DNA of 54,756 bases, taken from positions 1 through 54,756 of the IMG/VR virus record IMGVR_UViG_3300020173_000001. One strand, given 5' to 3'. Below are positions 1-54,756 of the stretch, one piece after another (position 1 is the first letter of the stretch; the number at the start of each line of letters is the position of its first letter). The DNA is from a virus (Duplodnaviria; Caudoviricetes). Under the pieces are notes generated by a model. It ran no database searches. It was not told the origin of the DNA and was given only the letters and a program-made list of their open reading frames with translations. The position numbers and the translations under genes are program-made.

Positions 1-127
1 ATACGGAGACCCCCCGGATGGCCCATGCCCCCGGCCTCTAAGGAGGCTATGCGTGTCTGAATCCGTAGGATTATGAGCTACTTACAATGCTAAAGCATTG
101 TTATCTATTGTTTTTTAAAACAATAAG
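1..127. repeat. 127-bp exact direct repeat with 54630..54756 (circular assembly overlap; genome probably complete)
   Basis: Bases 1-127 match 54630-54756; 127 is a common assembler k-mer size. Confidence 0.95.
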
Positions 128-341
128 GGATTCTTGTCCTCTAAAATACAAGTATTTTAAGGGGAATTTTTGGGAGTAACCCCAAGGGGTTAGGTTATGG
201 TCAACCCTAAAGGGTCAAGGCGCAGAGGCATACCCCTAGCTTTTCCTTGCGCATAATGCTCACCAAAAGATCAGAAAGTTTCCCCTAAAGGGGAAGTCAA
301 TCACGGAAATTCCGAGAATAGCCAACCCCCTAAAGGGGTTG
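34..341. repeat. Cluster of seven short hairpins with TAAA/TAAG/AA loops in the non-coding region between the divergent arms
   Basis: gcctc-taag-gaggc 34-47; acaatgc-taaa-gcattgt 84-101; taaaatac-aa-gtatttta 142-159; taacccc-aa-ggggtta 177-192; accc-taaa-gggt 204-215; ttcccc-taaa-ggggaa 280-295; caacccc-ctaaa-ggggttg 323-341. Confidence 0.8.
299..319 (+). repeat. Early-region dyad repeat copy R1
   Basis: aatcacggaaattccgagaat. Confidence 0.9.
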
Positions 342-368
342 ACAATGGGATCGAATTAGGGTTACTTT
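339..368 (+). promoter_or_regulatory. Sigma70-type early promoter
   Basis: TTGACA (339-344), 18 bp, TACTTT (363-368), upstream of the first ORF. Confidence 0.55.
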
Positions 369-428
369 GTAAGGGCTTCATCGGCAAATCGATGAGGCAG
401 CAACCTTAACTTAATTCGGAGAATTAAC

Positions 429-1043
429 ATGACAAAATCAGCTACTTTACCTACGGTAACCTTGGACAGCAAATTCACTGTAGGTCGTAAGACCTATACT
501 TTGACTGATGGAATCAGTCATGCCGTAGCTTGTTATGACAAGCTTTACCTGATCCAAGAGGATCAGTTAGCTCTCTACAGAGAGCTTGGAAACATCTTGC
601 TTCAGATTGAAAATCTGTTCGGTGGTGACAAGAAAGCCTACGGCTCCTTTATCAGTAAAACTGATATGTCGAATGAGAACATCAGCTCTGCTGATAAGTA
701 TGATGCCAAATGGATTGCCACTCACTGGACTAAAGTCCAGAAGTTAAACAAAGCTGGTAAGCTTTCAGCACTTGGCGTATCTTCGATACGGAAGATTGTT
801 CTGGAAGCTCATCCTGAGCTTCGTAAGAAGCCTAAAGCTTCTTCGGCTGGTAACACCTCGAAGGGCAAGCCGAAGGCTTCTGAACAGCCTAGTAAGGCTG
901 AGGAGATCATCAAGAACACTGTCTTTGAGACAGTGGTAGCCAAGAACGAAAAGGAACTTGCAGAGCAAGTTTATGAAGCTCTTGAAGCCGGAGGCTTTAA
1001 CAGATCCACATTTGCAAAAGAGCTTGCAAAGCTCTTCAAGTAA
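429..1043 (+). CDS. First early protein, Lys-rich, unknown function (possible DNA-binding protein)
   Basis: 204-aa ORF, GGAG RBS at 418-421, followed by a UUCG hairpin. Confidence 0.8.
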   Translation: MTKSATLPTVTLDSKFTVGRKTYTLTDGISHAVACYDKLYLIQEDQLALYRELGNILLQIENLFGGDKKAYGSFISKTDMSNENISSADKYDAKWIATHWTKVQKLNKAGKLSALGVSSIRKIVLEAHPELRKKPKASSAGNTSKGKPKASEQPSKAEEIIKNTVFETVVAKNEKELAEQVYEALEAGGFNRSTFAKELAKLFK

Positions 1044-1049
1044 ATCATT

Positions 1050-1069
1050 TAGCCCCCTTCGGGGGGCTA
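1050..1069 (+). terminator. GC hairpin with UUCG loop (weak terminator or stabilising hairpin)
   Basis: tagccccc-ttcg-gggggcta directly after the stop; only a short T tail. Confidence 0.55.
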
Positions 1070-1072
1070 TTC

Positions 1073-1093
1073 AATCTCGGAAATTCCGAGAAT
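1073..1093 (+). repeat. Early-region dyad repeat copy R2 (perfect dyad)
   Basis: aa-tctcggaa-a-ttccgaga-at. Confidence 0.9.
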
Positions 1094-1115
1094 AACTTTA
1101 AATCGGAGATTTAAA

Positions 1116-1301
1116 ATGGAATATTGTGGGGTTCAAATCTTGGAGTATTCAGATACTGAATACTGTTTTTGCTATCAAGGTCGTTTAATAAACGACAGAC
1201 ATAGTTTACCAGTTCTCCTTAAAAAGGAGAGTGACCATTGGGTTAACAAACATAAAGCCGAAGGCTTTATAGATTGTTTGATTGCTCTTGGTGAAATATA
1301 A
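1116..1301 (+). CDS. Hypothetical early protein
   Basis: 61-aa ORF with GGAG RBS, followed by a terminator. Confidence 0.7.
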   Translation: MEYCGVQILEYSDTEYCFCYQGRLINDRHSLPVLLKKESDHWVNKHKAEGFIDCLIALGEI

Positions 1302-1304
1302 AAG

Positions 1305-1330
1305 AAGCTCCCTTCGGGGAGCTTTTTTTT
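1305..1330 (+). terminator. Rho-independent terminator
   Basis: aagctccc-ttcg-gggagctt followed by a T run. Confidence 0.85.
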
Positions 1331-1356
1331 GTTTATACTTCTTTGAAGTATAGTCG

Positions 1357-1375
1357 ATCACGGAAATTCCGTGAT
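1357..1375 (+). repeat. Early-region dyad repeat copy R3 (perfect dyad)
   Basis: atcacggaa-a-ttccgtgat. Confidence 0.9.
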
Positions 1376-1449
1376 TGATTTTTTTTCTTTTGTATGTGTG
1401 TAGCTAATTACATGCCGACAAAAGTCTATCAAGAATAGGAGTACATGCC

Positions 1450-1605
1450 GTGAACTTTATATTATTTTTTGCTTGGTTATTAATACTTGTATCTACTTCA
1501 AGTATATTATTAATAGTAGCTTATACTACTATTAATCCTATAATATTATTATCATTACTACCTGTAGTAATGTTACTTTCTGTTTTAGCTTTTGATCGGG
1601 GGTGA
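1450..1605 (+). CDS. Small two-TM membrane protein (51 aa, not in ORF track)
   Basis: GTG start, GGAG RBS at 1438-1441; MNFILFFAWLLILVSTSSILLIVAYTTINPIILLSLLPVVMLLSVLAFDRG. Confidence 0.6.
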   Translation: MNFILFFAWLLILVSTSSILLIVAYTTINPIILLSLLPVVMLLSVLAFDRG

Positions 1606-1607
1606 TC

Positions 1608-1757
1608 ATGCGTGTATGTTTCTATGATGATGAGGGGTTTATGTTTTCTTATCTTACCTGTCGTGACATGCGTCAAGTATCTAAGATACTTAAACGTTTC
1701 CCTAGTAATGCAAAACTAATCACGGAAAATCCGAGAATGAAAAGGAGAATAAAATGA
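1608..1757 (+). CDS. Hypothetical 49-aa protein (not in ORF track; reads through repeat R4)
   Basis: GGGGGTG RBS, MRVCFYDDEGFMFSYL..., ATGA overlap with the next ORF. Confidence 0.5.
   Translation: MRVCFYDDEGFMFSYLTCRDMRQVSKILKRFPSNAKLITENPRMKRRIK
1717..1738 (+). repeat. Early-region dyad repeat copy R4
   Basis: taatcacggaaaatccgagaat followed by an aaggag RBS. Confidence 0.88.
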
Positions 1758-1918
1758 ATTATGCTATACTTGTTTTGAATAAAGATGGTGAAGTTATCTT
1801 TGATAGTGGGCCATATGATGGCGACTGTGAGGTAGCTGGGCGAGCTATGAAACGTGCCGCCAATAGGTGGGAAAAGCGTGGCTACGAAGTAGAATTTCGT
1901 GAAAGAAAAGGAGAATAA
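1754..1918 (+). CDS. Hypothetical 54-aa protein (not in ORF track)
   Basis: AAGGAG RBS; MNYAILVLNKDGEVIFDSGPY...ERKGE. Confidence 0.7.
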   Translation: MNYAILVLNKDGEVIFDSGPYDGDCEVAGRAMKRAANRWEKRGYEVEFRERKGE

Positions 1919-1919
1919 C

Positions 1920-2156
1920 ATGAGTAACGTACCTTTAGATTTAGGTAATGGATATACCTTATCCATTGTTGCCGATACTGGCGGCTTAGTAGAGGTAGCA
2001 CTAATACATGATGATCATGGATTTATTAATACAAGTTTGTGGTTTTATGATTTGACTAAGGCATCAGATTTTTATGATGATGTAGTGAGACACATGAATG
2101 CCGATCAATTAATAATTGCTTTGGTAAAAGCAAAAGCATATGCAAAAGGAGAATGA
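1920..2156 (+). CDS. Hypothetical early protein
   Basis: AAGGAG RBS supports ATG 1920 (MSNVPLDLG...). Confidence 0.7.
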   Translation: MSNVPLDLGNGYTLSIVADTGGLVEVALIHDDHGFINTSLWFYDLTKASDFYDDVVRHMNADQLIIALVKAKAYAKGE

Positions 2157-2157
2157 C

Positions 2158-2391
2158 ATGCATATAGAACACATTGCAGAGAACAAGGTTGTTGTTCACA
2201 AGAAGTCTATGGTATCAGGTAGGCTAAACTCTATGCTTTTACCTACGACTCAAGGTAAGATAGAGTACTGGATTGAATCAGGTAAACTGATTCAGGATGT
2301 CATGCCTGATTTAAATGATAATCAACGTGAGTTCTTGATGTCAGGTATTACACCTCGTGAATGGAATGATATGTTTGGTGAGGAGGATTAA
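2158..2391 (+). CDS. Conserved marine phage hypothetical protein
   Basis: AAGGAG RBS; motif LIQDVMPDL..QREFLMSGITPREW recalled from phage early proteins. Confidence 0.7.
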   Translation: MHIEHIAENKVVVHKKSMVSGRLNSMLLPTTQGKIEYWIESGKLIQDVMPDLNDNQREFLMSGITPREWNDMFGEED

Positions 2392-2394
2392 ACT

Positions 2395-2526
2395 ATGCCT
2401 AAGTGTGAAAACTGTGGTGACGAAGAAGAAGTTCTGTATTATACAGAATGGGGGTATGAGTGCGGTGATCTATGTGAAGTGTGCTCAGAAATGTTTCTAA
2501 ATATGGAGGATGAAGATGCAGATTAA
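2395..2526 (+). CDS. Very acidic 43-aa CxxC...CxxC zinc-ribbon protein (not in ORF track)
   Basis: GGAGG RBS; MPKCENCGDEEEVLYYTEWGYECGDLCEVCSEMFLNMEDEDAD. Confidence 0.7.
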   Translation: MPKCENCGDEEEVLYYTEWGYECGDLCEVCSEMFLNMEDEDAD

Positions 2527-2722
2527 CAAACGTGACAGGTCTGCCCTACGTGCCGACAAATATTGGCGGTCTATATGGCATCGACAGATGCTGTTTAAAA
2601 CAAAACCCTTGACATCTGTTTCATCCTGTGACAGAACTAAGGAAATTAATGGCAACAAGGAGTTAAGCCAATGTCCAGATCCTACCTCGTCTATCAGTTC
2701 AGACCAGAAGTCTATGACATAA
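2516..2722 (+). CDS. Hypothetical basic protein
   Basis: GGAGG RBS; the C-terminal part overlaps the next gene and a TTGACA element. Confidence 0.4.
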   Translation: MQINKRDRSALRADKYWRSIWHRQMLFKTKPLTSVSSCDRTKEINGNKELSQCPDPTSSISSDQKSMT

Positions 2723-3069
2723 TTAATGAGAACCCTCAATCAGAGATAGCAAGGATTGCTTTTGATCTAAGACTTCTTAATGAGAAGTCTGCAGAGCAGA
2801 GTGTCAATGATGCCTTGTTTCATAACATGTATTACCCAACCAAGTTCCTGCATCTAGGTGTGCTATCTGAATCTGTTGACCCACTAGAGGCTGTCTTTGA
2901 TGCAGGGAATGGCTATGGTAAAGCTAAGGTTACCACCCTTGCTAAGGGTGACACTAGCCTATCTGTAGGTAATATAATTGTACACTTGCAGCAGAACAAG
3001 GTATATCTATGTATGCCTACTGGATGGCATGAGCTTTCACGAGAGCTAGACTTTTGCCTTAAATTGTAA
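2671..3069 (+). CDS. Phage protein with YodL-like C-terminal motif
   Basis: AAGGAG RBS; LEAVFDAGN...SLSVGNII...VYLCMPTGW resembles YodL-like SLSVGDVV...YYC..FGF. Confidence 0.55.
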   Translation: MSRSYLVYQFRPEVYDIINENPQSEIARIAFDLRLLNEKSAEQSVNDALFHNMYYPTKFLHLGVLSESVDPLEAVFDAGNGYGKAKVTTLAKGDTSLSVGNIIVHLQQNKVYLCMPTGWHELSRELDFCLKL

Positions 3070-3088
3070 TCACGGAAATTCCGAGAAT
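3067..3088 (+). repeat. Early-region dyad repeat copy R5 (begins with the stop codon of the upstream gene)
   Basis: taatcacggaaattccgagaat. Confidence 0.9.
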
Positions 3089-3098
3089 GGAGAATCAA

Positions 3099-3491
3099 AT
3101 GAAAACCGAAATATATTATAACCTACATAAGCATGTCTTTTCTGTAAGGAAAAGAAACGGTAAGGTTCAATGGCATACTAATAGTATCATAGCACATAAG
3201 CCTGTTTTTGCAGTGCAACCTGCAGGGTGGGCAAAGACTCAGGATGAGCAGGTCAAGAATGTACATGCGTTTGTTAGACCTCAAAGCATTGAGGTGGATG
3301 CTGATCTATGGTTTCAAGACCCGGACTATGCCCATGATCCTGACATAGACAGGCTTGAGCGTGTCAGGTATAACCCATATCATGCGAACACATTTGTAGA
3401 TGAGCACGATGAGCCGATCTACCATGCTGAGGTTGCTTATTTGTATATTGACAAACAAAATAAACCTGTCATAAAGGTGTTCAGAACTTAA
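3099..3491 (+). CDS. Conserved phage hypothetical protein
   Basis: GGAG RBS; motifs YYNLHK..FSV, KNVHAFV, RYNPY..TFV recalled from a widespread phage family. Confidence 0.75.
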   Translation: MKTEIYYNLHKHVFSVRKRNGKVQWHTNSIIAHKPVFAVQPAGWAKTQDEQVKNVHAFVRPQSIEVDADLWFQDPDYAHDPDIDRLERVRYNPYHANTFVDEHDEPIYHAEVAYLYIDKQNKPVIKVFRT

Positions 3492-3500
3492 ACGAAAATC

Positions 3501-3522
3501 TAATCACGGAGATTCCGAGAAT
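3501..3522 (+). repeat. Early-region dyad repeat copy R6 (GGAG variant; its end forms an ATG)
   Basis: taatcacggagattccgagaat(g). Confidence 0.88.
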
Positions 3523-3667
3523 GCTTTACTACATAGAAAATCAAGAAGGTTTATGGTGGTCTAACACAGATGGTTGGTGTAATAATACACGATCTTTATT
3601 TAACCAAAATGAAAAAGAGATTTTTAATCTACCCATAGGTGGTGAATGGAAGGAGTTAATACAATGA
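3521..3667 (+). CDS. Hypothetical 48-aa Trp-rich protein (not in ORF track)
   Basis: MLYYIENQEGLWWSNTDGW...NLPIGGEWKELIQ; ATGA overlap with the next gene. Confidence 0.65.
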   Translation: MLYYIENQEGLWWSNTDGWCNNTRSLFNQNEKEIFNLPIGGEWKELIQ

Positions 3668-4362
3668 CTTTATCCACACAAGAAATGAATGATCTACTTA
3701 AATATAACTCAGACATAGGCATGGCTGCATCTGCTAGGCCAATTAACGAGACTGAAAATCACGATGGTTCTTGTGACTACAGAACAGATTACTGTGATGA
3801 GACTTGTTATAATGTTAAGTTATATAGGATTTATCCAGACATGGCTAAACGTGATGACAGATGCGAGACTATCTGGCAGAAACTAAACAAGTCTAACTCT
3901 GACTTCACTAAATTCTTTAGTCGTAAACGGTACGATACTAGTCGTGTTCGTCACATGACCAGAGGCGAAGCCTTCAAAGATGTAATTGATGTGTATCGTG
4001 TCAAGACTATGTGCCTACTTAACCCGGATACTACATGGTGGATTCCTACCAGAGCATGGCGTAATCCACGCCTCAAAGCTCTGATTGAGAAAGAGCTTAT
4101 GCCTCTACCTAACTGTGCCATTAATGCATCACTCGACCCATCCAACAGCAAAGCTGAATGGAAAATGTTGATTGATGACGATTGGAATATCATGTTCTAT
4201 GGTGATGATGACTTGACATCTGATCCTGTTTATGGAACAAGAATGTTCCTATGCCCTAAGACCCACAAGGATCTCAAGGGTCACTGCAAGGACTGCAAGG
4301 CAGGTTGCTTTGCACAAAAGACTATTAACCGCACACAGATTGTGCATCTATCAGAACACTAA
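3664..4362 (+). CDS. GP88-like Cys-rich (radical-SAM-like Fe-S) phage protein
   Basis: AAGGAG RBS before ATG 3664; SCDYRTDYCDETCY, R..TRGE, WWIPTRAW, NASLD, CP...CKDCKAGCF. Confidence 0.6.
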   Translation: MTLSTQEMNDLLKYNSDIGMAASARPINETENHDGSCDYRTDYCDETCYNVKLYRIYPDMAKRDDRCETIWQKLNKSNSDFTKFFSRKRYDTSRVRHMTRGEAFKDVIDVYRVKTMCLLNPDTTWWIPTRAWRNPRLKALIEKELMPLPNCAINASLDPSNSKAEWKMLIDDDWNIMFYGDDDLTSDPVYGTRMFLCPKTHKDLKGHCKDCKAGCFAQKTINRTQIVHLSEH

Positions 4363-4381
4363 TCACGGAATTTCCGAGAAT
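4360..4381 (+). repeat. Early-region dyad repeat copy R7 (begins with a stop codon)
   Basis: taatcacggaatttccgagaat then aaggag. Confidence 0.9.
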
Positions 4382-4394
4382 GAAAGGAGTCGAT

Positions 4395-4559
4395 ATGGGT
4401 ATCGAAAATAAACTTGAAGAAGCTATAACTAAATGGACAGACAGTTTAGAGATAGATCAGTTAATTAATTACGTCCAAGAAGATCTCTGGGTGTATTACA
4501 CTGAAAGCGCAGATGAAGAAGAAGCTTTAGAATTTATAACTGAAATGGAAGTAGGATAA
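4395..4559 (+). CDS. Highly acidic 54-aa protein, DNA-mimic candidate (not in ORF track)
   Basis: AAGGAG RBS; 16 D/E versus 2 K. Confidence 0.7.
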   Translation: MGIENKLEEAITKWTDSLEIDQLINYVQEDLWVYYTESADEEEALEFITEMEVG

Positions 4560-4572
4560 AAGGAGAAGACTA

Positions 4573-5412
4573 ATGCCATTTGATACAACAACATCATTCG
4601 TACCAGAGCACTTGGACTTTGAAGTAGAGTTCGAGGAAACTAAATTCAAAGACAAGAAGTATGTAATCAATGCTAATACAGGTGAATACCTTGGTATTGT
4701 GGGCAAGGACTTTACTTGTGCCAATCATGGTGACTTCTTTCGTAATGTCGTAGACACTGCGACTCAGGAGTTACAAGAAGGTGATTTACATAATGCAGAG
4801 TTTAACTTCAGGACTGCTCGTGGTGGTGCTTGGGCTATGCTCGACATCACATTACCTAGCATGAAGACTGTAATAGAAACTGATCGACATGAAACTGAGA
4901 TAGGTAATCGTATTATATCATTACATGGTATTGATGGGTCATGCTCTAATCAGGTATTCTTTGGTGCTATTGATTTCTTTTGCACTAATGGATGTATACG
5001 TGGTGATCACGATAAGATTCGCAGGAAGAACACTTCTAATTTCTCACTTAGTTCATTCATAAATGAGCTATCTAATTTGCGGTCTGACTTTTATGAACAG
5101 TCTATCAAGATGAAAACATGGGCGCAGACTAGTCTCAAAGATGTAGATGTAGAAGCATTGCTAGAAGCAATGATACCATCAGAACGTAAAGCTAAAAAGA
5201 TGTATCAGCTATACCGTTCAGAAGCATTTACTCGTGGAGAAAACAAGTGGGCCTTGTACTCTGCCTTCACTAACTATGCATCTTATGCAGATAATCGTAA
5301 TGGTTTTAATCTGCGTAATACAGGTAATGACACACAAGCTACCTCAATGTGGGGTAGAGAACAGGAGGTATCTAAGTGGGTTAGCGATGATCGCTTTTTA
5401 CTAGCAGCTTAA
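4573..5412 (+). CDS. DUF932/DUF945-family phage/plasmid protein
   Basis: YLGIVGKDF..NH..FF, HGIDGS, FFCTNG, NKWALYSAFTNY pattern. Confidence 0.75.
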   Translation: MPFDTTTSFVPEHLDFEVEFEETKFKDKKYVINANTGEYLGIVGKDFTCANHGDFFRNVVDTATQELQEGDLHNAEFNFRTARGGAWAMLDITLPSMKTVIETDRHETEIGNRIISLHGIDGSCSNQVFFGAIDFFCTNGCIRGDHDKIRRKNTSNFSLSSFINELSNLRSDFYEQSIKMKTWAQTSLKDVDVEALLEAMIPSERKAKKMYQLYRSEAFTRGENKWALYSAFTNYASYADNRNGFNLRNTGNDTQATSMWGREQEVSKWVSDDRFLLAA

Positions 5413-5431
5413 TCACGGAATTTCCGAGAAT
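5410..5431 (+). repeat. Early-region dyad repeat copy R8 (begins with a stop codon)
   Basis: taatcacggaatttccgagaat then aaagga. Confidence 0.9.
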
Positions 5432-5445
5432 AGAAAGGAACTACA

Positions 5446-5718
5446 ATGACTATGACACCAGAAGAAATCGCAAAGAACCATCAAGAGTGGGCAGACAAAC
5501 GAGAAGCACGTAGGATAGAGCTTGAAGAAAAATGCAGTAACTTAACAGAGGAACAAATAACTGCAATTAAATTTGCCTATGAAACAATACAAGAAGCGGA
5601 AGGCAATCTTAGCGAAATGTTTGACATTACGATAGATGATGCTAGAAGTATATCTAAAGCAGAAAGTAAGTTAAGAATGTCTTTTCCTCATTTATGTAAG
5701 CACCCTTATTATTCTTAA
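5446..5718 (+). CDS. Hypothetical helical protein
   Basis: AAGGA RBS, 90-aa ORF. Confidence 0.7.
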   Translation: MTMTPEEIAKNHQEWADKREARRIELEEKCSNLTEEQITAIKFAYETIQEAEGNLSEMFDITIDDARSISKAESKLRMSFPHLCKHPYYS

Positions 5719-5740
5719 TACAAACACAAAGGAGTTAAAC

Positions 5741-5959
5741 ATGTTTGTACTTGTAGCAACTAAACCACTCAATGACGGAACAAAAGGGTTTCGTTTCAAC
5801 CTCTTAGGTAAGAAAGGATTGTACCGTAAACGTAATCGTGACTCTCGTGGTTGGTTTAAATATGAACCACTTAGTACTATGAACGCCTATCACTTTGGCA
5901 AACGTAGTTTGTATATTGAACATGCTTATGGACGTAAGCTGTATCACTTTGCAGGGTAA
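5741..5959 (+). CDS. Hypothetical basic protein
   Basis: AAGGAG RBS, 72 aa. Confidence 0.7.
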   Translation: MFVLVATKPLNDGTKGFRFNLLGKKGLYRKRNRDSRGWFKYEPLSTMNAYHFGKRSLYIEHAYGRKLYHFAG

Positions 5960-5962
5960 CAC

Positions 5963-6223
5963 ATGGATTACTACGTAGTAGAAATGTATGTTGACGAATT
6001 GGAAGAGTGCCTCATTATGAGGTGCTCGACTATCGAAAGTGCTAGTCTTATCTGTGAAAAACTAGAAGAAGCATTTCCTAATGCTGTCTTTGACATCATG
6101 GATACTGAACCTGTAATAAAAATGAGAGACTATAACTTGGAAAGGTATGAAGAATTGCGAAGTGTTTTGACATCTAAACCAAGAAGTCCACAACTAATTG
6201 TGATAGAAGGGGGTAAGCGTTAG
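5963..6223 (+). CDS. Hypothetical protein
   Basis: 86-aa ORF in tight operon packing. Confidence 0.65.
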   Translation: MDYYVVEMYVDELEECLIMRCSTIESASLICEKLEEAFPNAVFDIMDTEPVIKMRDYNLERYEELRSVLTSKPRSPQLIVIEGGKR

Positions 6224-6227
6224 TGTT

Positions 6228-6428
6228 ATGTACTATGTAGAAGTTATCCATAAGGATGAAAAAGTAGCTGGATCTTATCAAGATCTTCTTTCGGATAGTG
6301 TTGATGTAGCAAATAAACTTTCGTTTGCAGATTGCACTGTAACTATATACGAATGTGTTAAGACATTATGTAGCATTGATAAAATCAATAAGGTTTTATC
6401 TTGGAAAGATGACGGTTACAGAACATAA
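6228..6428 (+). CDS. Hypothetical protein
   Basis: 66-aa ORF in tight operon packing. Confidence 0.6.
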   Translation: MYYVEVIHKDEKVAGSYQDLLSDSVDVANKLSFADCTVTIYECVKTLCSIDKINKVLSWKDDGYRT

Positions 6429-6432
6429 ACTT

Positions 6433-6472
6433 TAGTGGGGTATTGCATTGCAGTACCCTACTATGCTACTCT
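6433..6472 (+). promoter_or_regulatory. 31-bp imperfect palindrome overlapping a putative promoter of the recombinase gene
   Basis: tagtggggtattgca-t-tgcagtaccctacta (6433-6463, two G.T mismatches); TTGCAT 6443-6448, 18 bp, (TGc)TACTCT 6467-6472. Confidence 0.6.
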
Positions 6473-6489
6473 TAATTTAAAGTATTACT

Positions 6490-7593
6490 ATGAGGATTAT
6501 AAATACTATGTATAAATATACTAAAAAAGTAACCTTAAAGAGTGGTACTGCATGGAAATTTGTACCACCTCAAGATGCTATTGATTCTGGTGTCGTACAG
6601 AGACAGACCTTTCGTGATGGTAGGGCTGCACGATATGAGATACCTAGACTAGTAGAAAAGGTGGAAGCCTTTAGACGTGGTGATATTGTCGCAGGAAATA
6701 TTGGGCCTAACTCTACGATATTACAGATTTATAAATACTATGTAACAACTACACACTTTAGAGAGTTAGCATATAACTCACAAAGAACTTACGATAGCAC
6801 TATGGATGCAATTGCTAATACAAGTATTAATAATAAAAAATTAGGTGCTATTAAAATAAAAGATCTTACTGCTATGCATTGTACAGAAGCTTATGAAGAG
6901 TGGTGTGAAAGTGTTAGTGTGTCTAAAGGGAATCAGTGTGCAAGAATCTTTTCATTATTAATAAATTTTTGTATATCTATTGATTTAATTATGTATAACC
7001 CTATGTCCAAAGTTCGTAAAAGAAAACATGAAACAAGGAATACAACATGGACACAGGAACAAGTAGAAAAGTTTCTTGATACTGCATTCACTGATTTTGA
7101 TTGGCGTAATGTAGGATTAATTGTTTTGATGTGCTATGAGTGGGCACAAAGACCTACTGATATAAGATTATTAAAGTGGTCTTCAATTAATTTTAAAGAT
7201 AAAAGAGTTAAAATAAAACAAACTAAACGTGGTGCAGAAGTAGAGCTACCAATCTCTGATGAGATTATGGAGATGCTCACTCAGCAGAAAAAAGATTGGG
7301 ACTTCCAAGACTATGTAGTACCACACCAGAGGCCATCAGATGGTGCTTACAGTCCGTTAAACATTGCTCAGGTATCGGTACTCGCTAACCAAGTTAAAGA
7401 AGCTGCAGGACTGCCATCTGATTTGCGTGTTGGAGATTTAAGGAAGAGTGCCATTGTGGAAATGATCGACTCAGAGGTAGATCATCTAGCTATTATGTCA
7501 GTGACAGGACACCAGAATATCTCGTCACTTAATCCATACCATAAGCATACCTATGCTGCAGCTAAGTCTGCATTAGAAAGGAGAAAGAAATGA
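6490..7593 (+). CDS. int: Tyrosine recombinase/integrase (start may be ATG 6508)
   Basis: WAQRPTDI (R), QTKRG (K), GDLRKS (HxxR with H replaced by G), VTGH...LNPY (H, Y); N-terminal core-binding-like region. Confidence 0.9.
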   Translation: MRIINTMYKYTKKVTLKSGTAWKFVPPQDAIDSGVVQRQTFRDGRAARYEIPRLVEKVEAFRRGDIVAGNIGPNSTILQIYKYYVTTTHFRELAYNSQRTYDSTMDAIANTSINNKKLGAIKIKDLTAMHCTEAYEEWCESVSVSKGNQCARIFSLLINFCISIDLIMYNPMSKVRKRKHETRNTTWTQEQVEKFLDTAFTDFDWRNVGLIVLMCYEWAQRPTDIRLLKWSSINFKDKRVKIKQTKRGAEVELPISDEIMEMLTQQKKDWDFQDYVVPHQRPSDGAYSPLNIAQVSVLANQVKEAAGLPSDLRVGDLRKSAIVEMIDSEVDHLAIMSVTGHQNISSLNPYHKHTYAAAKSALERRKK

Positions 7594-7775
7594 AAAGACT
7601 AGTACCACCAGAGGTGTTTGAGCATTGGGCTACATGTTTCCAAGAGGGTAAACTGTCTGATGAATACGGAAAAGAATTAGCTGAGGTATTATTTTTACTT
7701 GCAAATAATGCAAGATTTGAAATAGAATACGCACAAAGATATCATGGTGATCAGTATGACAACACGATACATTAA
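7590..7775 (+). CDS. Hypothetical protein
   Basis: AAGGAG RBS, ATGA overlap with int. Confidence 0.7.
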   Translation: MKRLVPPEVFEHWATCFQEGKLSDEYGKELAEVLFLLANNARFEIEYAQRYHGDQYDNTIH

Positions 7776-7884
7776 AAATCCTATGGCTAAAGATCTTAGA
7801 CAACCTAAGTATAAACAACAGGTAATACCTAATAAGAAAAAACCTGTACCTAAACGAAAAGAAAAACACAAAGGAAAGGATTAA
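7756..7884 (+). CDS. 42-aa basic ArfA-like protein (not in ORF track)
   Basis: GGTGA RBS; KNPMAKDLRQPKYKQQVIPNKKK...RKEKHK resembles ArfA [22 protein letters not shown]...RKGKH. Confidence 0.6.
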   Translation: MTTRYIKNPMAKDLRQPKYKQQVIPNKKKPVPKRKEKHKGKD

Positions 7885-8556
7885 ATGTTACAAACATTTT
7901 ATATAGATCACATGGGTACTGACCTGTCAGTAGTTAATGCTGCAAGGGTCAGCTTTAATAAAAAAAGCACATGGGCTGGTCAAGAAGATGGACTACATGA
8001 TGGCGAAGGTGGTATGGGTGTGCTAAATACTGCTGATTCAAAACTAATACGCTACTTAGCCAAGCATAAACACATGTCACCCTTTGGACATTGCTTTGCA
8101 TCCTTCCATGTTAAAGCCCCTGTCTTTGTGGCACGTCAGCTAGTCAAGCATAAGTTCCTACGGTGGAATGAGATTAGCCGTAGATATGTTGACAGTGAGC
8201 CTGAGTTTTATGTACCTACAGATTGGCGTGGACGTAGTGAAGATAAAAAGCAGGGGTCTGAAGGTACTATAACAATATCAAATGATATTGTAGAGGATGT
8301 ATACGATGAAGTTATTGGACGGTATAGACTTCTGTTAGACATAGGCGTATGCCCTGAGCAAGCACGTATGGTACTGCCACAGTCTATGATCACTGAGTGG
8401 TACTGGTCAGGTAGCTTAGATGCATTTGCTGACATGTGTAACCTACGTTGTAAGCCTGACACACAGTACGAGACACAGGTTGTAGCTGGACACATTGACA
8501 CAGAGATGTCTAAGTTGTTCCCTGTGTCGTGGAAAGCATTAAGGGAGAATGAATGA
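7885..8556 (+). CDS. thyX: FAD-dependent thymidylate synthase
   Basis: HKHMSPFGH, ARQLVKHK..WNEISRRY, EQARMVLP motifs. Confidence 0.95.
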   Translation: MLQTFYIDHMGTDLSVVNAARVSFNKKSTWAGQEDGLHDGEGGMGVLNTADSKLIRYLAKHKHMSPFGHCFASFHVKAPVFVARQLVKHKFLRWNEISRRYVDSEPEFYVPTDWRGRSEDKKQGSEGTITISNDIVEDVYDEVIGRYRLLLDIGVCPEQARMVLPQSMITEWYWSGSLDAFADMCNLRCKPDTQYETQVVAGHIDTEMSKLFPVSWKALRENE

Positions 8557-18925: not shown

Positions 18926-18950
18926 TAAAGGGGGCTTTTGCCCCCTTATT
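18926..18950. terminator. Bidirectional terminator between the convergent arms
   Basis: aagggggc-tttt-gccccctt with A/T flanks between two stop codons. Confidence 0.85.
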
Positions 18951-21900
18951 TATTCTGTCATCTTTTGGAATCTTGATAGATCTCTTAGTGACTTTTCAGT
19001 ATTTAAATACTGTTGTAAAATAAATAACTCGTTTTGTTCTAAGTCTTCTACTTCACCTAAGCCTAATTCTTTTACTGCCTTTTGAATACCCTTCTTAGGA
19101 TACTTAGATGTTATGTCGTATTGCAGTGAAATCACTTCTTCAGGACCAGAGTACTGCATTCTTAAAAATGTTTTAGCTAAATCTTTTACTCTTGGTACAA
19201 CATCACCATTCCAATGATCTAGTTTTTGTTGTTGAGTTAATTTATTAAACCAATTACTTTCTAATAGTAGGCTAGACTCAGCTTCCATAATATCAAACAC
19301 AATACCATTAAGAGCATTAGCTGCTTTAGGTGCTTGATCTCTTATCTTCTTAGCAGTATTTAAATCAAAATCTCTAAGACCCATTTTATTCATCACACGT
19401 TGTGTGTCAGTAAGTCTAATGATTCTAGCACCTAATACTTTAGTTGATTGTATATCAGCCCTACCACCTGCTGCAGTCTCTCTAGGATCTGCTAGTGGTT
19501 TACCTGTAAACAGAGGAATGATATTATCTACATAACGAAATGCATTATTAATTAATTTATTATTTTGAACCCTGTCAATTGGTGCTGCATTTTCACCTCT
19601 TGCAACACCAGCTAAAATATTCAATGGTTCTAGCGGCCTGATCAAAGGATTAACATATTGAGTTGCTAATGTAGTGCCAACTATTTCCATACCTTTAACT
19701 ACATCTCTTCTTTCAGGATCAGCCATAAATTTAATAGCTTCTAATGTATCACGTTGTGTTTTATCTAAGTTTCTAAGTAACCCTGAAAGTCCAAAATCTT
19801 GAGTAAACTGACCAAAAGCTTTTATTGCTTGCTGGTATTCACCCATTAAACTAAGTGCCATTATTCTTGCTGCACCTTTGTATGCTGAAACAGGGAAGTC
19901 ATATTGTTGACTAAAGACCTCACCTGTTAAAGGATCTTGAGCCGCATACATAGGCAAACCCTGCTTTACATTTTCTATCTCTTGTTGTGCTAGTGTGTAA
20001 ATAATACCAGCACTAACTAATGACCTAGATATAGCTTCTTCGTAAGACATATCTTCATACTTACCTGCAGCTTTTAAAATAACGTTTACACCTGTAGTGT
20101 TTTTACCTAAAAAACCTATAGTGTTATTAAAGAATCTTCCAAAAGGAACTATCATACCAAGACCCGGCATATTTCTAGCGTCCTCTAACATACCAGCAAG
20201 TTTACCTATGCCATCACTAGACTTGTAAGACTTAGAAAATATAGCTTCTATTGTATCATCAACAGCACTAGTTTCTATATCACGATATTCTTTTGAGGCC
20301 ATAAATTTTTGAAGTGTCATGTCTCCAATATTTTGTGACCGATAAAAATCATTCCAACCTTTACCTGTAGCAATCCTAAGTTTTTTATCCATTTGAAATA
20401 AAAACTCTTGCGATTTAGTAAATGCATCTTGTGCTTGTACTAAAGATAGTCTTTGAATTAAGTCAATTTTTTCATCGATAGCTAATCCAACAAGTTTTTG
20501 ATCTGGGGTAAATTTGCCACCAGTTAAAAGTTGATTAGTGTTTTCTACACCACCGGGAAGTACGCTGTTTAATTTTTCCAATGCCTCAGAATTTCTTTGC
20601 AGCGCTGATTCAAAAGCAGTGTAAGTCATGTCAGCATCTAATAAAAATCTTACTCTTTGGGCATTGGATTCAATAAGTGCTTTAGCTATTCTTTGTGTAT
20701 TAGCACCTTCTTCTGTCATTCCTATAAGCTTTTGCAGAGTACCTTTACCTGCATAAATTAATGCTACAGACATATCTGATGCACTTTGTAATGCGGAGTT
20801 CGCACCCCAACCAATTACATTTAAAGCACTGGTAGAAGGGTGTGAAACTAATAATCTTATTAATCTATTTTGAACTTTAGCAGTACCTTCCATAAACTTA
20901 CTAGGTTCTTTAGGTTTCTTTTTAGTGTCCTTTACAAACCCACCATCTAAAGCAGAGTCATACAAATCTTTAAGTTGTTTATCACTAATAGACATACCTA
21001 GTTGTCTAGCTGAGTTACCTGCTGCACCAAGTGCAGTACCTGCTTGAGATATTTTATACGCAAAAATGTCACCTATATCACGACCAGTAACCTTAGATCT
21101 AGGTATTACTTTTCCATCTTCACCTTTAACTTTAATTTTATTACCAGTTGCTTTTTCTATAGAACGTAATAGTCCTTGAGCTTCTTTATCACTTACTTCA
21201 GCAATTAGGTCTGCCATCCAGTTACTAAACTTATCATCTTCAAATCGTTTAGCCCATACGAATCCACGTTCATATGCAACCTGAGTCATACCTTTTAATA
21301 TAACATTGCCTTCTTTATCAGCATGACCAAACAATAAGTTTTGTACAAACTCTACACCAAAATCTTTACTATCTTTAGATAGTACTGCACCACCTTTTAA
21401 TTTTGTTTTCCAATCTCTACCAACATTAACTTTATCTTGATTTACATATGCACCTATAGTTTCAGAAACCTCAGAAACAAAACCCTCAGTTTTTGGTTCA
21501 GGCATTACTATACTAGGCAGTGCTGTATCTGACACACCCCTTCTAGCAACTAATCCTGCTTGCAATCCACCAAGAAGAATACCACCAAGTGCAGCAACAC
21601 CTACTGATAAATAACTAATATCTTCTTGTGCTTCTACATCTACCATACCCTCTTGATACAGGTACTCCATACCTGAGCCAACCATAGCATCAACACTAGT
21701 TACAACACCTATCTCTGTAATAGCTGCCTTAGTAGCTAGTCTTTGTGCTGCAGTTTTACCTAATACATTCTGTGAGTATGCAGCTATCTTAGTTTTAGAT
21801 CCAGTACGAGCAGCTTTTACTCCATCAGTAAATACTTTAGTACCTACTTTTTTAGCAGCTTCTTCTGTACCTTCTTTTTTCATTGCCTCAAGAGCAACCC

Positions 21901-22465
21901 TTTGTGCTCCTTTAGTTCCTACACGAAGAGATCCACCAGCAACAGCTTTACCAATTAAACCACCAACAAGGTTTACTGGATCAAGTACTACACTTCTACT
22001 AAAGTCCATTAGTCCTTCAGCTTTTTCAGCAATAGATGTTTCTTTACTAAAAATACCAGCCATATTCTCATACAACTGGTACGCTTTGGCAGCCCTAGCC
22101 TTTTTATCTGCATCATCTTTTATGTCGTTAATGTAGTCCATCTCAGCTAAACCCCTTACGGAGTTTCCTGATACTACACCTCTACGATTATTTAAAAAAC
22201 TATCAACAACAGATTCTTTGGTTTCATCTTTTATAGATTCATCACCATATCTGTCACGCATATACCCCTCTACAATAGAGTAGGCATAGTCATTTTCTAC
22301 TATATCATCTTGAGTATATGTGCCAGCTTCTGGTAGTGCAGGAGAAGAATCTACTTTAATATCTTCTGTTATATATTTATCAAAGTAGTTTTCACGATCT
22401 TTTTTTTCTTCTTCTTCAGTATCTACAGGCTCTGTTTCAAGATACTTATCAAAGTAATTTGTCAT
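18950..22465 (-). CDS. Large internal virion/ejection protein
   Basis: 1171 aa, helical and Ala/Gly-rich, last gene of the structural arm. Confidence 0.7.
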   Translation of the reverse strand: MTNYFDKYLETEPVDTEEEEKKDRENYFDKYITEDIKVDSSPALPEAGTYTQDDIVENDYAYSIVEGYMRDRYGDESIKDETKESVVDSFLNNRRGVVSGNSVRGLAEMDYINDIKDDADKKARAAKAYQLYENMAGIFSKETSIAEKAEGLMDFSRSVVLDPVNLVGGLIGKAVAGGSLRVGTKGAQRVALEAMKKEGTEEAAKKVGTKVFTDGVKAARTGSKTKIAAYSQNVLGKTAAQRLATKAAITEIGVVTSVDAMVGSGMEYLYQEGMVDVEAQEDISYLSVGVAALGGILLGGLQAGLVARRGVSDTALPSIVMPEPKTEGFVSEVSETIGAYVNQDKVNVGRDWKTKLKGGAVLSKDSKDFGVEFVQNLLFGHADKEGNVILKGMTQVAYERGFVWAKRFEDDKFSNWMADLIAEVSDKEAQGLLRSIEKATGNKIKVKGEDGKVIPRSKVTGRDIGDIFAYKISQAGTALGAAGNSARQLGMSISDKQLKDLYDSALDGGFVKDTKKKPKEPSKFMEGTAKVQNRLIRLLVSHPSTSALNVIGWGANSALQSASDMSVALIYAGKGTLQKLIGMTEEGANTQRIAKALIESNAQRVRFLLDADMTYTAFESALQRNSEALEKLNSVLPGGVENTNQLLTGGKFTPDQKLVGLAIDEKIDLIQRLSLVQAQDAFTKSQEFLFQMDKKLRIATGKGWNDFYRSQNIGDMTLQKFMASKEYRDIETSAVDDTIEAIFSKSYKSSDGIGKLAGMLEDARNMPGLGMIVPFGRFFNNTIGFLGKNTTGVNVILKAAGKYEDMSYEEAISRSLVSAGIIYTLAQQEIENVKQGLPMYAAQDPLTGEVFSQQYDFPVSAYKGAARIMALSLMGEYQQAIKAFGQFTQDFGLSGLLRNLDKTQRDTLEAIKFMADPERRDVVKGMEIVGTTLATQYVNPLIRPLEPLNILAGVARGENAAPIDRVQNNKLINNAFRYVDNIIPLFTGKPLADPRETAAGGRADIQSTKVLGARIIRLTDTQRVMNKMGLRDFDLNTAKKIRDQAPKAANALNGIVFDIMEAESSLLLESNWFNKLTQQQKLDHWNGDVVPRVKDLAKTFLRMQYSGPEEVISLQYDITSKYPKKGIQKAVKELGLGEVEDLEQNELFILQQYLNTEKSLRDLSRFQKMTE

Positions 22466-40778: not shown

Positions 40779-43700
40779 TTATTTATTTTTTGGTCTTGAT
40801 ACTAGTCCACCCGTAGCTCTACCACCTGTAGCTTTACCGTATTTTTTTTCAGCTTTTTTAGATCTTTCTCTAGCAGCACTAGTATCTCTAGCAATTCTTT
40901 CAGCTGCACTTTCTCTACGATCTCTTTCTTTTCTAGATGGCTTTAAAATTTCTTCTGTAGATTTAGATCCTTCTAAAGCTTTTTTAACTCTTTCACTAGC
41001 TTCTTTTTGTTTTTCTGTTGGACCTTCTTTTTTAGTTTTTTCTATAATTTTTTTAGCTTCCTCTAAACCACCACCAGTAACATCTCTACCAGTAGAACGT
41101 TTAATTTGTTCAGCGGTTGGAGTTCTATAAGAAGCACCCACATTAAATAGGCTAGTAGGATCTGCTTTTAAAATACCTTTAGCTCCAGCTGCAAGTTGAT
41201 CCCCATCAATCATAAAACTAGGTATCCATTCAAGATTATTTTGTGTTATATACCCATTTAATTGCTCTTGAAGATTTGAAGCAAGTTCAGTAGAACCTTG
41301 AGATTCAAGTATTTTTATATTAGCCGCAATCTGAGCTGCAGTTCCAGCTTTACCTAAAGTTCCAAGAACTGTTCCACCAAAAACTTTATTTACTAAAGCC
41401 TCAATGCTGCCAATTTTTGGACTTTCTAGTGCAGATATAGAACTAGCATATAAGCTTTGATCACTACTATAATTGTAATCTTTTATCCAAGCATTAGGAT
41501 CTGCAGGTTTATCTTGTTCATCACTAATGCTAGGTCCAGTGTCATCTCTTGTAGGTGAAACAGTTGGTAAAGGTACTTCACACATTTTAGTATCGGGATT
41601 ATAAACTAAACCTCTAGCTTTACAAGTCTCTTCACTTTCTACTGGAACTTCAGATTCCGTAGTGCCAATAGCAGTACCACCTGCAGGAGTTTCCCAACTA
41701 AAGTTTGGACTGTAAACATTAGGAGTACTTATAGCTTCTTTAGCTGACATTCCGGGTGGGTTGTAAAAACTAAAATTACTATTGTAAGGAGACATATCTG
41801 TTCCATTAGCTGCACCTGCTGCCATAGGTTGTTGATATTGTGTTTGTTGTTGTTGATATGGATCTGTTGGAACCATACCACCCTGTGCCATCATAATAGA
41901 ATTAATCTCTTGCATTTCTTCTGGAGAAAGATCACCACCCATAGCCATCTGTTGGGGTTGAGGAGGTGTAGGTGCTGGACTGTATGGTGTAGGAGCTTGA
42001 GGCATAGGGGGTTGCATCTGTTGTTGCATCATAGGGGCAGCTTTAGGTCCACCAACAGGAACAGGCTCACCACCGATTCTACCATTAGCCTCCATACTTT
42101 GCAAGCCTTCTTTTGCTTTATTACGTAAATCTTCAAAATGTTTTACACCAAGGTATCTTACGACATCAGCAGGTACAACATATTCACCCTCGGATAGTTG
42201 AGCAGGAATATCATCTCGCACCTCTTTAGCCATAGAGCCATTAGGAATAGGATTACCTGATACTGGGTCTTGTTTCATCCCATCGTCTTTTAGTCCACCT
42301 TGCTGCATAAATGCCATTTCCATTTGTCCATCCATAGTCATTCCACCTTTGTTATAGCTACCCTGTAAATTTAAAGCATAATCTTCATGTTCTTCTGGCA
42401 AAAAAGTTTTAAATATAGGATCAGAGTCTTTATGACTTTGTGCTATTTTATATGCATCACCATCATAAGTAATTCTTCTAATTCCTGCAACATTACTTAT
42501 ATTATAGAGGTGTGGCCTTTCCTCACCTCTAACTATAGTAACACCAACACCGCCTCTTTCAAGATCCCTTTGATTACCACCTACAACATTTATGTAACCT
42601 TCTGCAGCAGTATCTTCTATTCTACCACCAGCATAAAAAGCTACATGGTCAATAGTACCATGACCCTTTTCCCCCGGTTTTTGAAAGTCAAAAAGTACTA
42701 TATCACCTTCTTGTGCACTTTCTAAATCTACAGGTTTACCATAGTTTTTATATTCATTAGCTCTAATTTTATTATATTTAGTTTTTTGTCCTAAAGTATC
42801 TGCGCCCATTTCTGTAAGAATATGATTTACAAAAGCAGCACACCAACTTACTTCTTCACTTGATACATCAAGGCCGTGATTCTCTCCTAAAGCAGTATCT
42901 AAAAAACCTTGTATAGCTTTTAAATCTGTTTGTTGATTTAGTCCAGATATAATTTTAGTTGGCTCTCTAGCACCGCCTTGCTTGCCTCTAATAAGATAAC
43001 CTAACTCTAATATTTTATCTATTGGAGTTCTAGTTTCATAAACATTAGGTAAGCCTTCAGGTCTTAATTTAGGTCTAAGAATTTCTTCAGCTTCTTCTTG
43101 AATATTTTCTGGAAGTTTTAATGTATTAAATTCTTCTTTAGCTTCTGCTTGACGAGTTATTTCTTCTTGCTGTCGCATAGATGCTGCAGGACTATAAGGT
43201 TGTCCTGTTGTTGGATCTATAATAGCAGGATCACCTGCGGTAGGCATACCCATCATTTGTTCTGTTTGAGTTGCAGCTAATCCACCTCTGTTAAATCTAA
43301 ACTGTGGATTATCTGGTAAATCAAAATCTGTAATATCTATTTCTATTCCTACTGAATCTTTATCTTCATAATAAGATATACCCTCTGGATTTTTATTTTT
43401 AAATTTTATTTTACCATTCGTTTCATTATTAAGTGTCCTTAAAACTTTTCTAACCCCATCACTATAAGTATTCTTAGCAGCCTCTAAACTTAAATCATGA
43501 GCTTTAGATATAACTTTAGGAGTAGGAATATATATTTTATTTACCCCGTTATTTTTAGATTCTTTAATTACAGCAAGTAAAGACATCCTAATTGTATCAG
43601 ATAATTTAGCTGGAACTAAATCTTTTTCTATACCAGTATTAATATTTATACCTTTAAAGATGTTTATTAAATCTTCTTTAAATTCATTATCATTTTCTTT

Positions 43701-54629: not shown

Positions 54630-54756
54630 ATACGGAGACCCCCCGGATGGCCCATGCCCCCGGCCTCTAAGGAGGCTATGCGTGTCTGAATCCGTAGGAT
54701 TATGAGCTACTTACAATGCTAAAGCATTGTTATCTATTGTTTTTTAAAACAATAAG
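54630..54756. repeat. Second copy of the 127-bp end overlap
   Basis: Matches 1..127. Confidence 0.95.

Follow-up and report, generated by a model that had tools for sequence, protein, structure and literature searches.

A conserved array of 21-bp dyads in the early region of an uncultured HMO-2011-type phage: candidate operators for a phage-encoded regulator

The operator/stoperator networks of Cluster A mycobacteriophages, such as L5, Bxb1 and TipsytheTRex, are built from one short site recurring in many copies, mostly in the small intergenic gaps of regions that are transcribed and a few at promoters, and related phages carry similar but distinct site variants matching their own regulator, as described in parts of two reports (PMC9283540, PMC6550527). 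These stoperators are asymmetric 13-bp sequences oriented with transcription, present 20-30 times genome-wide and read by a monomer through a helix-turn-helix (HTH) and a stoperator domain, in (potentially) temperate phages with no RNA polymerase of their own (PMC9283540, PMC6550527). Cluster O mycobacteriophages, which have no integrase, carry more than 30 copies genome-wide of a 17-bp dyad, TGTTCGG-N3-CCGAACA, whose arms are invariant around a 3-bp centre that varies; many of them lie between genes or close to gene 5' ends, with a loose tie to start codons, some lie in genes, and both the reader protein and the function are left unexplained in the part of the report drawn on here (PMC4351075). 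Likewise unexplained, in the corresponding part of another report, is the function of the repeats found directly upstream of some start codons in Cluster K mycobacteriophages, namely the start-associated sequences (SAS), which are 13 bp, asymmetric and include the ribosome-binding site, and the inverted extended SAS (ESAS), with 17-bp arms and a spacer of 4-13 bp (PMC3203893). In T4-type phages, promoter-early stem-loop (PeSL) cassettes, each a strong sigma-70 promoter with a terminator stem-loop, stand as repeated regulatory elements between small accessory early genes of a variable region, where recombination between the repeats shuffles genes and forms mini-circles, according to part of a further report (PMC2839356). 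Here we describe a 21-bp dyad present in eight copies, R1 to R8, in the early region of IMG/VR record IMGVR_UViG_3300020173_000001, an uncultured phage genome of the HMO-2011 type analysed over its whole 54,756 nucleotides (hereafter the window). HMO-2011-type phages are a dominant and broadly distributed marine viral group, as stated in part of PMC9038755, the main text of which contains none of the words repressor, promoter, palindrom or RNA polymerase, and a title search for 'HMO-2011' with 'promoter' found nothing in print on gene control in these phages. The array is real, conserved and functionally constrained; of the two explanations offered in the original prediction for this DNA, an integron-like cassette array is rejected, and an operator array is favoured but unproven.

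The dyads and their conservation in relatives

The repeat unit is (A/G)ATCWCGGA-NNN-TCCGWGAWT (W, A or T), with all eight copies between 299 and 5431 and none elsewhere in the window. Exact matches to AATCWCGG-N5-CCGWGA were found at 299, 1073, 1358(-)/1356, 1718, 3068, 3502, 4361 and 5411, against 0.00 expected from 100 shuffles, and the predicted confinement to the first 5.5 kb thus held when the whole window was scanned. Allowing two mismatches in the 17-mer added a single match, at 53555, which is at chance level (1.51 expected), and the eight matches to the core CGGANNNTCCG (0.07 expected) are all the eight dyads themselves. The central five bases are AAATT in R1, R2, R3 and R5, AAAAT in R4, AGATT in R6 and AATTT in R7 and R8; R2 and R3 are perfect dyads, and the other six are TCACGG...CCGAGA hybrids in + orientation, all of which agrees with the prediction. 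The shared orientation is correct in the window and yet weak evidence, because in relatives the W positions are found flipped at orthologous sites.

A scan of IMG/VR with the 21-mer pattern returned 99 stretches, among which 14 contigs carry arrays; contigs with a single copy were taken as chance. Each site in these 14 contigs shares its flanks with one of R1-R8, and the positions are therefore orthologous. Across 58 orthologous sites, identity to the window sequence is 96% for the dyad (1170/1218) and 79% for the 25-bp flanks (2291/2900, an ungapped identity that may be slightly low), and the dyad value is still 94% (706/754) once the eight positions fixed by the search pattern are left out. 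R7 is missing from six contigs, and R5 and R8 from the most divergent one; the AGATT centre of R6 is conserved in all relatives. One relative, c25759_322 (IMGVR_UViG_3300025759_000322), has an extra near-copy, AATCACGGAAATTCCGAGTTT, at its position 4502 inside a GP88-like gene, with no counterpart in the window.

The variation among these sites is informative on how they are read. The symmetric positions 5/17 hold A or T only and are complementary at just 23 of 85 sites (14 of the 34 distinct 23-mers), and positions 2/20, also restricted to A or T, are complementary at 13 of 85 (10/34). All four combinations, A.A, T.T, A-T and T-A, occur at the W pairs, even at one orthologous site across contigs; in another lineage a G/C (S) flank position is likewise independent, with G.G and C.C combinations. 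RNA folding of R4-R8 gives a mere -4.0 to -4.4 kcal/mol and does not outperform shuffled sequences (z from -0.7 to +1.3), and no T-run follows. The independent W flips, together with the weak folding of R4-R8, therefore indicate two half-sites on double-stranded DNA and not a selected hairpin. The dyads are thus orthologous, under constraint and degenerate in the manner of double-stranded-DNA sites.

The best surviving alternative, which we nevertheless consider improbable, is that the dyads act in the mRNA as hairpins of the 5' untranslated region or between cistrons, at the ribosome-binding site, affecting translation, stability or processing, either alone or through an RNA-binding protein. 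Such a role would suit R2 and R4-R8, since on the sense strand each of them is followed after 10-22 nt by an ATG, with a Shine-Dalgarno sequence (SD) in between (-2 nt for R6, where the ATG overlaps the dyad end), and in R6 the centre kept in all relatives yields GGAG 9 nt before the overlapping ATG. R3, the only terminator-like copy, folds at -17.1 kcal/mol (z -5.5), and R2 with its adjoining SD hairpin folds at -12.9 kcal/mol (z -2.2). Contigs identical to the window that span R4, R5 and R6 were found in RNA libraries, which is a weak hint given that DNA is possible in these libraries, and the start-codon-tied SAS/ESAS provide a precedent, as far as they are described in part of PMC3203893. 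Against an RNA-level role stand the stems without covariation and the shuffle-level stability of R4-R8 given above, as well as the related lineages described below, in which sites lie upstream of the gpA promoter or within coding regions with no start codon after them. Moreover, no Rfam family was found at any dyad (positions 1-8000, E<=1); the sole match, to rsmX at 1245-1327, is off the dyads and scores 26.7 bits against a gathering threshold of 56.

Site layout and an operator mechanism

The array opens with R1 (299-319; AATCACGGAAATTCCGAGAAT), about 20 bp upstream of the -35 box of a putative sigma-70-type promoter for gpA, TTGACA-N18-TACTTT (339-368, + strand), proposed from sequence only, with a hairpin, CCCCCTAAAGGGG, abutting the -35 box. 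gpA itself (429-1043, + strand) is the first early gene, encodes 204 aa and has R1 and R2 on either side. R2 (1073-1093), a perfect dyad just past gpA, is followed by a hairpin that sequesters the SD of a 61-aa open reading frame (ORF) at 1116-1301, and an intrinsic-terminator-like hairpin with a T8 run (1300-1329, + strand) closes this gpA-orf61 unit. A further hairpin, TATACTTCTTTGAAGTATA (1334-1352), precedes R3 (1356-1376), the second perfect dyad, which has an extended stem of 13 bp and then a T-run.

The remaining copies lie in the gaps between small genes. A T precedes each of R4-R8, and at R4, R5, R7 and R8 the resulting TAA terminates the upstream ORF. R4 (1718-1738) is followed by an SD and the ATG at 1754; R5 (3068-3088) lies between the stop of ORF 2671-3069 and the SD and ATG (3099) of an L5-gp82-like gene; R6 (3502-3522) overlaps the ATG at 3521; R7 (4361-4381) is the copy missing from six relatives; and R8 (5411-5431) separates the stop of a DUF932 gene from an SD and the ATG at 5446. 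With regard to promoters, the original prediction had stated that none is adjacent to the sites. This is correct in that most sites have no TTGACA box, with an exact TTGAC[AT] lying 25-90 bp upstream of one of the eight window sites, but promoter-like sequences are present 20 bp after R1 (the box above), before R4 (GTGACA-16-GATACT, 1663-1690) and before R6 (TTGACA, 64 bp before its centre).

Several other signals surround the first sites. Around R1 there are small GC hairpins with the pattern CCCC(T)AAAGGGG, at 180-189, 203-215, 282-293 and 326-338, the last of which abuts the TTGACA box, and related lineages have ACCCTAAAGGGT at the place of this hairpin cluster (180-340 in the window). Distant lineages with gpA also keep the element TTGCGCATAATGCTCACCAAAAG (246-272) close to their first dyad; it stands before R1 in the window and after the first dyad elsewhere, and may be a second promoter (CATAAT) or some other signal. 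In the SD hairpin past R2, TTAAATC-GGA-GATTTAA (1097-1115), the loop contains the SD that belongs to the 61-aa ORF, and in one related locus (L110) both arms are altered yet still pair (TTAATAC...GTATTAA), a compensatory change.

With somewhat better than even confidence, we propose that the dyads are double-stranded-DNA operators for a phage-encoded dimeric regulator. Each site would offer two half-sites, AWTCWCGGA, around a 3-bp centre; a phage protein would bind there and its binding would cause repression. The most likely regulator would be the product of gpA, and the position of R1 beside the gpA promoter may allow autoregulation. R3, past the two terminator-like hairpins, heads the early operon, and R4-R8 fill the tiny gaps from a stop codon to the next ribosome-binding site. 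An occupied site at or near a promoter could block initiation, and one elsewhere could act as a roadblock to read-through transcription, so that the early block of about 5 kb would be silenced together as a unit. Such silencing might serve a prophage state, given the presence of an integrase, or a switch from early to middle genes. The mixed positions of the sites relative to promoters, as in repressor networks, count for the operator reading.

gpA and the dyad variants of its lineages

In the original prediction the gpA product was already named as the candidate dimeric protein of an operator system. That proposal is the best supported of those considered, by the duplex half-site behaviour, by the dyad variants of lineages carrying gpA homologues and by a dimer prediction; no DNA-binding fold was recognised in gpA. 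The AlphaFold2 model (predicted local distance difference test, pLDDT, 75) consists of a helical N-domain (residues 14-130), a disordered lysine-rich linker and a two-helix C-domain, and the linker (window 840-890) carries an invariant SAGN(T/V)SKGK, SAGNTSKGK in the window. The homodimer was predicted with a score of 0.79 (runs of 0.79, 0.81 and 0.78), compared to 0.01 for the best of three controls; at least 79% of contacts agreed among the runs and the partner pLDDT was at least 74. As for the pass mark, 20 of 30 proteins with a structure solved as a pair of the same chain attained it, as did 1 of 23 with a structure solved as a single chain, counts that are only rough because our own alignment was used. 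The modelling thus supports, and does not show, that gpA is a homodimer.

gpA has 144 metagenome homologues and no Pfam family. IMG/VR DNA around 52 of the homologues was fetched, the loci being chosen through gpA, and a search for exact 6-base arms found a dyad in at least three copies at 27 of the 52, one of them (L142) unrelated; the window's own type, with its imperfect arms, escapes such a search. The core CGGA-N3-TCCG was present in 17 of 18 representative gpA-bearing loci, at 90 sites in total and with 3-7 copies per genome. The flanks are uniform within a genome and specific to the lineage (AWTCW, CGTTGT, CTASTGW, CTACCCT, CTATCTT or CTACTGA), and one close lineage, with a gpA 62% identical, has TGGA...TCCA instead of the core.

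The layout is constant across these lineages: one site lies about 150 bp before gpA, one just past gpA or within its linker DNA, and the remaining ones 20-45 nt before the ATGs of early genes. In 10 of 11 lineage representatives the first dyad is upstream of a TTGAC[AT] box, which follows it by 30-52 bp. Among 63 sites considered, an exact TTGAC[AT] was found 25-90 bp upstream of 18, against a background of 0.095 per stretch of that size, and at the commonest distance the dyad would occupy transcript positions of about +18 to +42; a few sites overlap a -10 region and a few are inside coding regions. Among the latter, the dyad is found in frame within the linker-encoding gpA DNA in some lineages (L129:7455, L152:7425 and L153:7455), and homologues of the window's 86-aa ORF (5963-6223) hold their own lineage's dyad in the coding sequence (L136:10098, L137:9651, L144:10819, L146:12434, L147:11884, L133:10038 and L153:12059), which the window copy does not. 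An integrase homologue was found at 24 of the 52 gpA loci, some of the others possibly being too short to extend that far, and none of 12 other early proteins of related lineages had a Pfam family. The same layout recurs in the isolates HMO-2011 and CRP-1/CRP-345, with first genes that are unrelated and with dyads (AGTCCG-N4-CGGACT and GTCCAAYGTTGGAC) that are unrelated as well.

Within the N-domain, helix 113-127 (LGVSSIRKIV) is a candidate recognition helix that may track the inner flank of the dyad: SSIRKI or SSIQKK occurs with TCWCGGA, SAIRKR with TGTCGGA, SAVRKR with YTCGGA (Y, C or T), SAIVKR with TGACGGA and SRIRQL with TCATGGA, a correspondence confounded by shared ancestry.

A number of results weigh against the operator reading or against gpA as its regulator. 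An RNA-level role would account equally well for sites placed directly in front of ribosome-binding sites, and R2 and R3 form strong RNA hairpins. No DNA-binding family was found for gpA in Pfam or NCBIfam, Foldseek gave no match to its fold in the PDB at E<=0.001, and a profile search of PDB sequences returned nothing. The best VIA-align match (Z 5.8) is an unrelated helical protein, and the likeness to Spo0J (Z 4.6) and to the KorB DNA-binding domain (Z 4.5) lies inside the noise of helical proteins. Four contigs (L113, L114, L132 and L115) combine an unchanged dyad with a gpA that shares just 43-44% identity with the window's over its N-terminal two thirds. The co-occurrence of gpA and dyad, seen in every lineage fetched that bears the dyad, is partly circular, because all loci were fetched by gpA. 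Finally, a search of 185,579 species genomes revealed no prophage copy, its sole match being one 4-kb contig of a metagenome-assembled genome (MAG).

Further searches added little on gpA. At E<=10, Pfam searches of 29 aligned members gave scattered chance-level matches, Repressor_Mnt being found in four at E of at least 0.13. An assignment to DUF3102, suggested by a protein-atlas score of 0.92, was dropped, as the 148-151 shared features are below the count of true members and a Pfam scan did not confirm it; titles and abstract listings of papers naming DUF3102 gave no function for that family. No gpA was found in isolated phages by tblastn, and hhalign against HMO-2011 gp01 and CRP-1 gp01 and gp03 stayed below 1% probability. 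Overall, we judge the chance that gpA is the regulator reading the dyads to fall somewhat short of even.

The constancy of the core, kept while gpA diverges to about 30% identity, would fit a second alternative, that the dyads are read by a DNA-binding protein of the host which the phage exploits and not by a phage protein, which would also agree with the finding that no phage protein with a recognisable DNA-binding domain, and no CI-like or HTH family in particular, was present among the scanned ORFs (27 against PHROGs; 25 and 27 against Pfam; not every small ORF is covered). The absence of a CI-like repressor had also been predicted. A host factor is, however, hard to reconcile with flanks that are uniform per genome and differ by lineage, with the TGGA...TCCA variant of one close lineage, and with the unrelated dyads of HMO-2011 and CRP-1 in the same layout, and we regard it as unlikely, slightly more so than an RNA-level role.

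Returning to the operator reading, gpA could, in an extension that we consider rather doubtful, found an unrecognised family of dimeric phage regulators, in which the core CGGA-N3-TCCG plus lineage-specific flanks would form an immunity-like specificity code, stoperator-like but symmetric, within a large branch of HMO-2011-type phages, which rank among the most abundant marine viruses. If true, this code would decide which related phages silence each other's early genes. A conserved operator array with variants specific to each lineage would offer a concrete way to test how early genes are controlled, and perhaps also lysogeny and superinfection immunity, in phages with hosts that are difficult to grow; it yields a candidate regulator with no known fold and a simple sequence marker of the early region for metagenomic contigs.

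Genome context, weaker alternatives and known systems

The window is a complete genome, as evidenced by an exact 127-bp direct terminal repeat (1-127 and 54630-54756), and comprises 54,629 unique bases. Among isolates, only Roseobacter phages CRP-345 and CRP-1 and Puniceispirillum phage HMO-2011 are similar, matching parts of its early region at 65-71% identity, and it is therefore assigned to an uncultured HMO-2011-type podophage. Rightward genes (0.4-18.3 kb) comprise small ORFs with no known function, the integrase, thymidylate synthase, primase-helicase, DNA polymerase A, a Cas4-like exonuclease, MazG and ribonucleotide reductase, and leftward genes (54.1-18.9 kb) encode lysis, terminase, portal, capsid and tail functions. 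Three early genes within 3087-5412 match the mycobacteriophage or mobile-element families Phage_L5_gp82 (E 1.8e-20), GP88 (E 1.6e-05) and DUF932 (E 4.5e-10). Three large leftward ORFs, 18950-22465, 24801-27776 and 40779-45356 (1171, 991 and 1525 aa), have either no family or a lysozyme-like segment only, and presumably encode virion or ejection proteins.

Contigs with no differences from the window (1-4200) were found in salt-marsh RNA-Seq libraries of 2018 (runs X2, X4 and X7), where RNA and carried-over DNA are indistinguishable; this very phage was therefore present there. RNA-library contigs also cross the window start. Four of 19 runs (X2, X4, X7 and X8) gave low-depth contigs with no joints in 1-7800 and no information on starts or ends, and these contigs are silent on circles and dyad junctions. 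The single match in species genomes mentioned above, L155 (JBMYTV010000019.1, 4151 bp), carries a gpA homologue 82% identical to the window's and was binned in a Patescibacteria MAG, which is probably a binning artefact more than a host signal.

N4-like phages have hairpin early promoters read by a virion or phage RNA polymerase. A comparable role here, in which an unrecognised RNA polymerase or sigma-like factor would use the dyads as promoters or parts of them, would agree with the clustering of the dyads at the leading genome end, just upstream of SD and ATG, and with the presence of the three large virion-region proteins with no assigned function. We consider it very unlikely, since no RNA polymerase family was found in any scanned ORF, some sites lie inside genes and the R4-R8 hairpins are unstable; in addition, the dyads of related lineages lie downstream of ordinary promoters, because sigma-70-type TTGACA boxes precede many sites. 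Likenesses to sigma-54, CRP-type, CcrM (GANTC) and lambda-operator sites, compared by eye with consensus sequences, were dropped for mismatches at key positions.

Gene content around the dyads bears on the other hypothesis of the original prediction, that of recombination sites. Seven differences were traced between the window and the 14 relatives. In the first two, one or two small genes after R4 were lost through exchange among three near-identical 18-bp copies of a ribosome-binding repeat ending in ATG, (G/C)AAAAGGAGAATnAnATG (1739-1756, 1905-1922 and 2143-2160, + strand). The third is the presence or absence of a 43-aa ORF (2395-2526) with no dyad nearby. The fourth is a window-specific insertion of about 143 bp with a 48-aa ORF (3524-3666, + strand), directly after R6, flanked by duplicated AATG and missing from the 12 relatives that cover the place. 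The fifth is a 197-bp indel (4363-4559, + strand) with TAA at both bounds that comprises most of R7 and a 59-aa ORF; relatives lacking this segment retain no dyad there, and R7 also occurs with no 59-aa ORF in two divergent contigs, so that dyad and ORF are independent. The sixth is the presence or absence of a 61-aa ORF after the integrase, and the seventh the replacement of the N-terminal two thirds of gpA. None of the seven runs from dyad to dyad or leaves a hybrid dyad. Since relatives lost genes between the ribosome-binding repeats, short translational signals appear to be the recombination hot spots here.

A tyrosine integrase lies 1 kb past R8 (6490-7593, + strand; PF00589, E 2.5e-22; phrog_1), as predicted, and is of ordinary phage type, scoring 16.3 bits against the 265-bit cut-off of the integron integrase model TIGR02249 (integrase_gron). 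Tyrosine recombinases generally act on core sites with inverted arms around an identical overlap of 6-8 bp, and the attC sites of integrons are imperfect palindromes, about 57-141 bp long, that contain paired core sites. The dyads, by comparison, are 21 bp with a centre of 3 bp (5 bp from CGG to CCG) that varies among AAATT, AAAAT, AGATT and AATTT, which is unsuited to such enzymes, and R4-R8 have no longer flank in common. Site-specific recombination sites for gain, loss or shuffling of cassettes, integron-like or PeSL-like, can therefore be dismissed as hardly credible in spite of the nearby integrase, of the T4-type precedent for regulatory repeats that mediate shuffling (described in part of PMC2839356) and of three differences with one boundary about 20 bp or less from a dyad (just 3' of R4, at the 3' edge of R6 and at R7), because the breakpoints in relatives, which had been proposed as the check, fall in the AAAAGGAGAATnAnATG repeats or at duplicated TAA or AATG, indels at 2391-2504 and 7599-7777 are far from dyads, and boundaries near dyads are expected anyway where dyads sit at gene starts. 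The hypothesis is not supported, and with it goes the more exciting claim of a phage integron.

How, then, does the array relate to described systems? It shares with the PeSLs its setting among small accessory early genes, but R4-R8 are not terminators, only one of eight sites has a TTGAC[AT] box and no breakpoints run dyad to dyad. Proximity to start codons recalls SAS/ESAS, yet the dyad here is separate from the SD and in related lineages is also found away from start codons. Plasmid RK2 offers another parallel in KorB, a dimeric global repressor of the ParB family with about a dozen identical 13-bp palindromic operators distributed across this mobile genome. The match of gpA to KorB (PDB 1r71) is, as noted above, within noise, and no ParA/ParB-like genes were seen. 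The Cluster O dyads are alike in their invariant arms, variable centre and mostly intergenic or gene-start positions, but differ in copy number, genome-wide spread, sequence and spacing (CGG-N3-CCG compared to CGG-N5-CCG here), as given in the available part of that report (PMC4351075).

The closest resemblance is to Cluster A. As in those phages, a short site recurs in mostly intergenic positions and at a few promoters, here with R1 by a promoter-like site, R4-R8 in gaps from stop to SD and 3-7 copies in related lineages; variants differ between related genomes, the phage is potentially temperate, and no RNA polymerase of its own was found among the scanned ORFs. Unlike the stoperators, the site is a 21-bp dyad, confined in eight copies to the first 5.5 kb, whose degenerate positions flip in relatives, and gpA, predicted to be a homodimer, has no detectable similarity to the Cluster A repressor, which is also not found among the scanned ORFs. 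The array is thus not a member of the Cluster A system, because the site is symmetric and the protein unrelated; by analogy, it appears to work most like a Cluster A operator/stoperator network.

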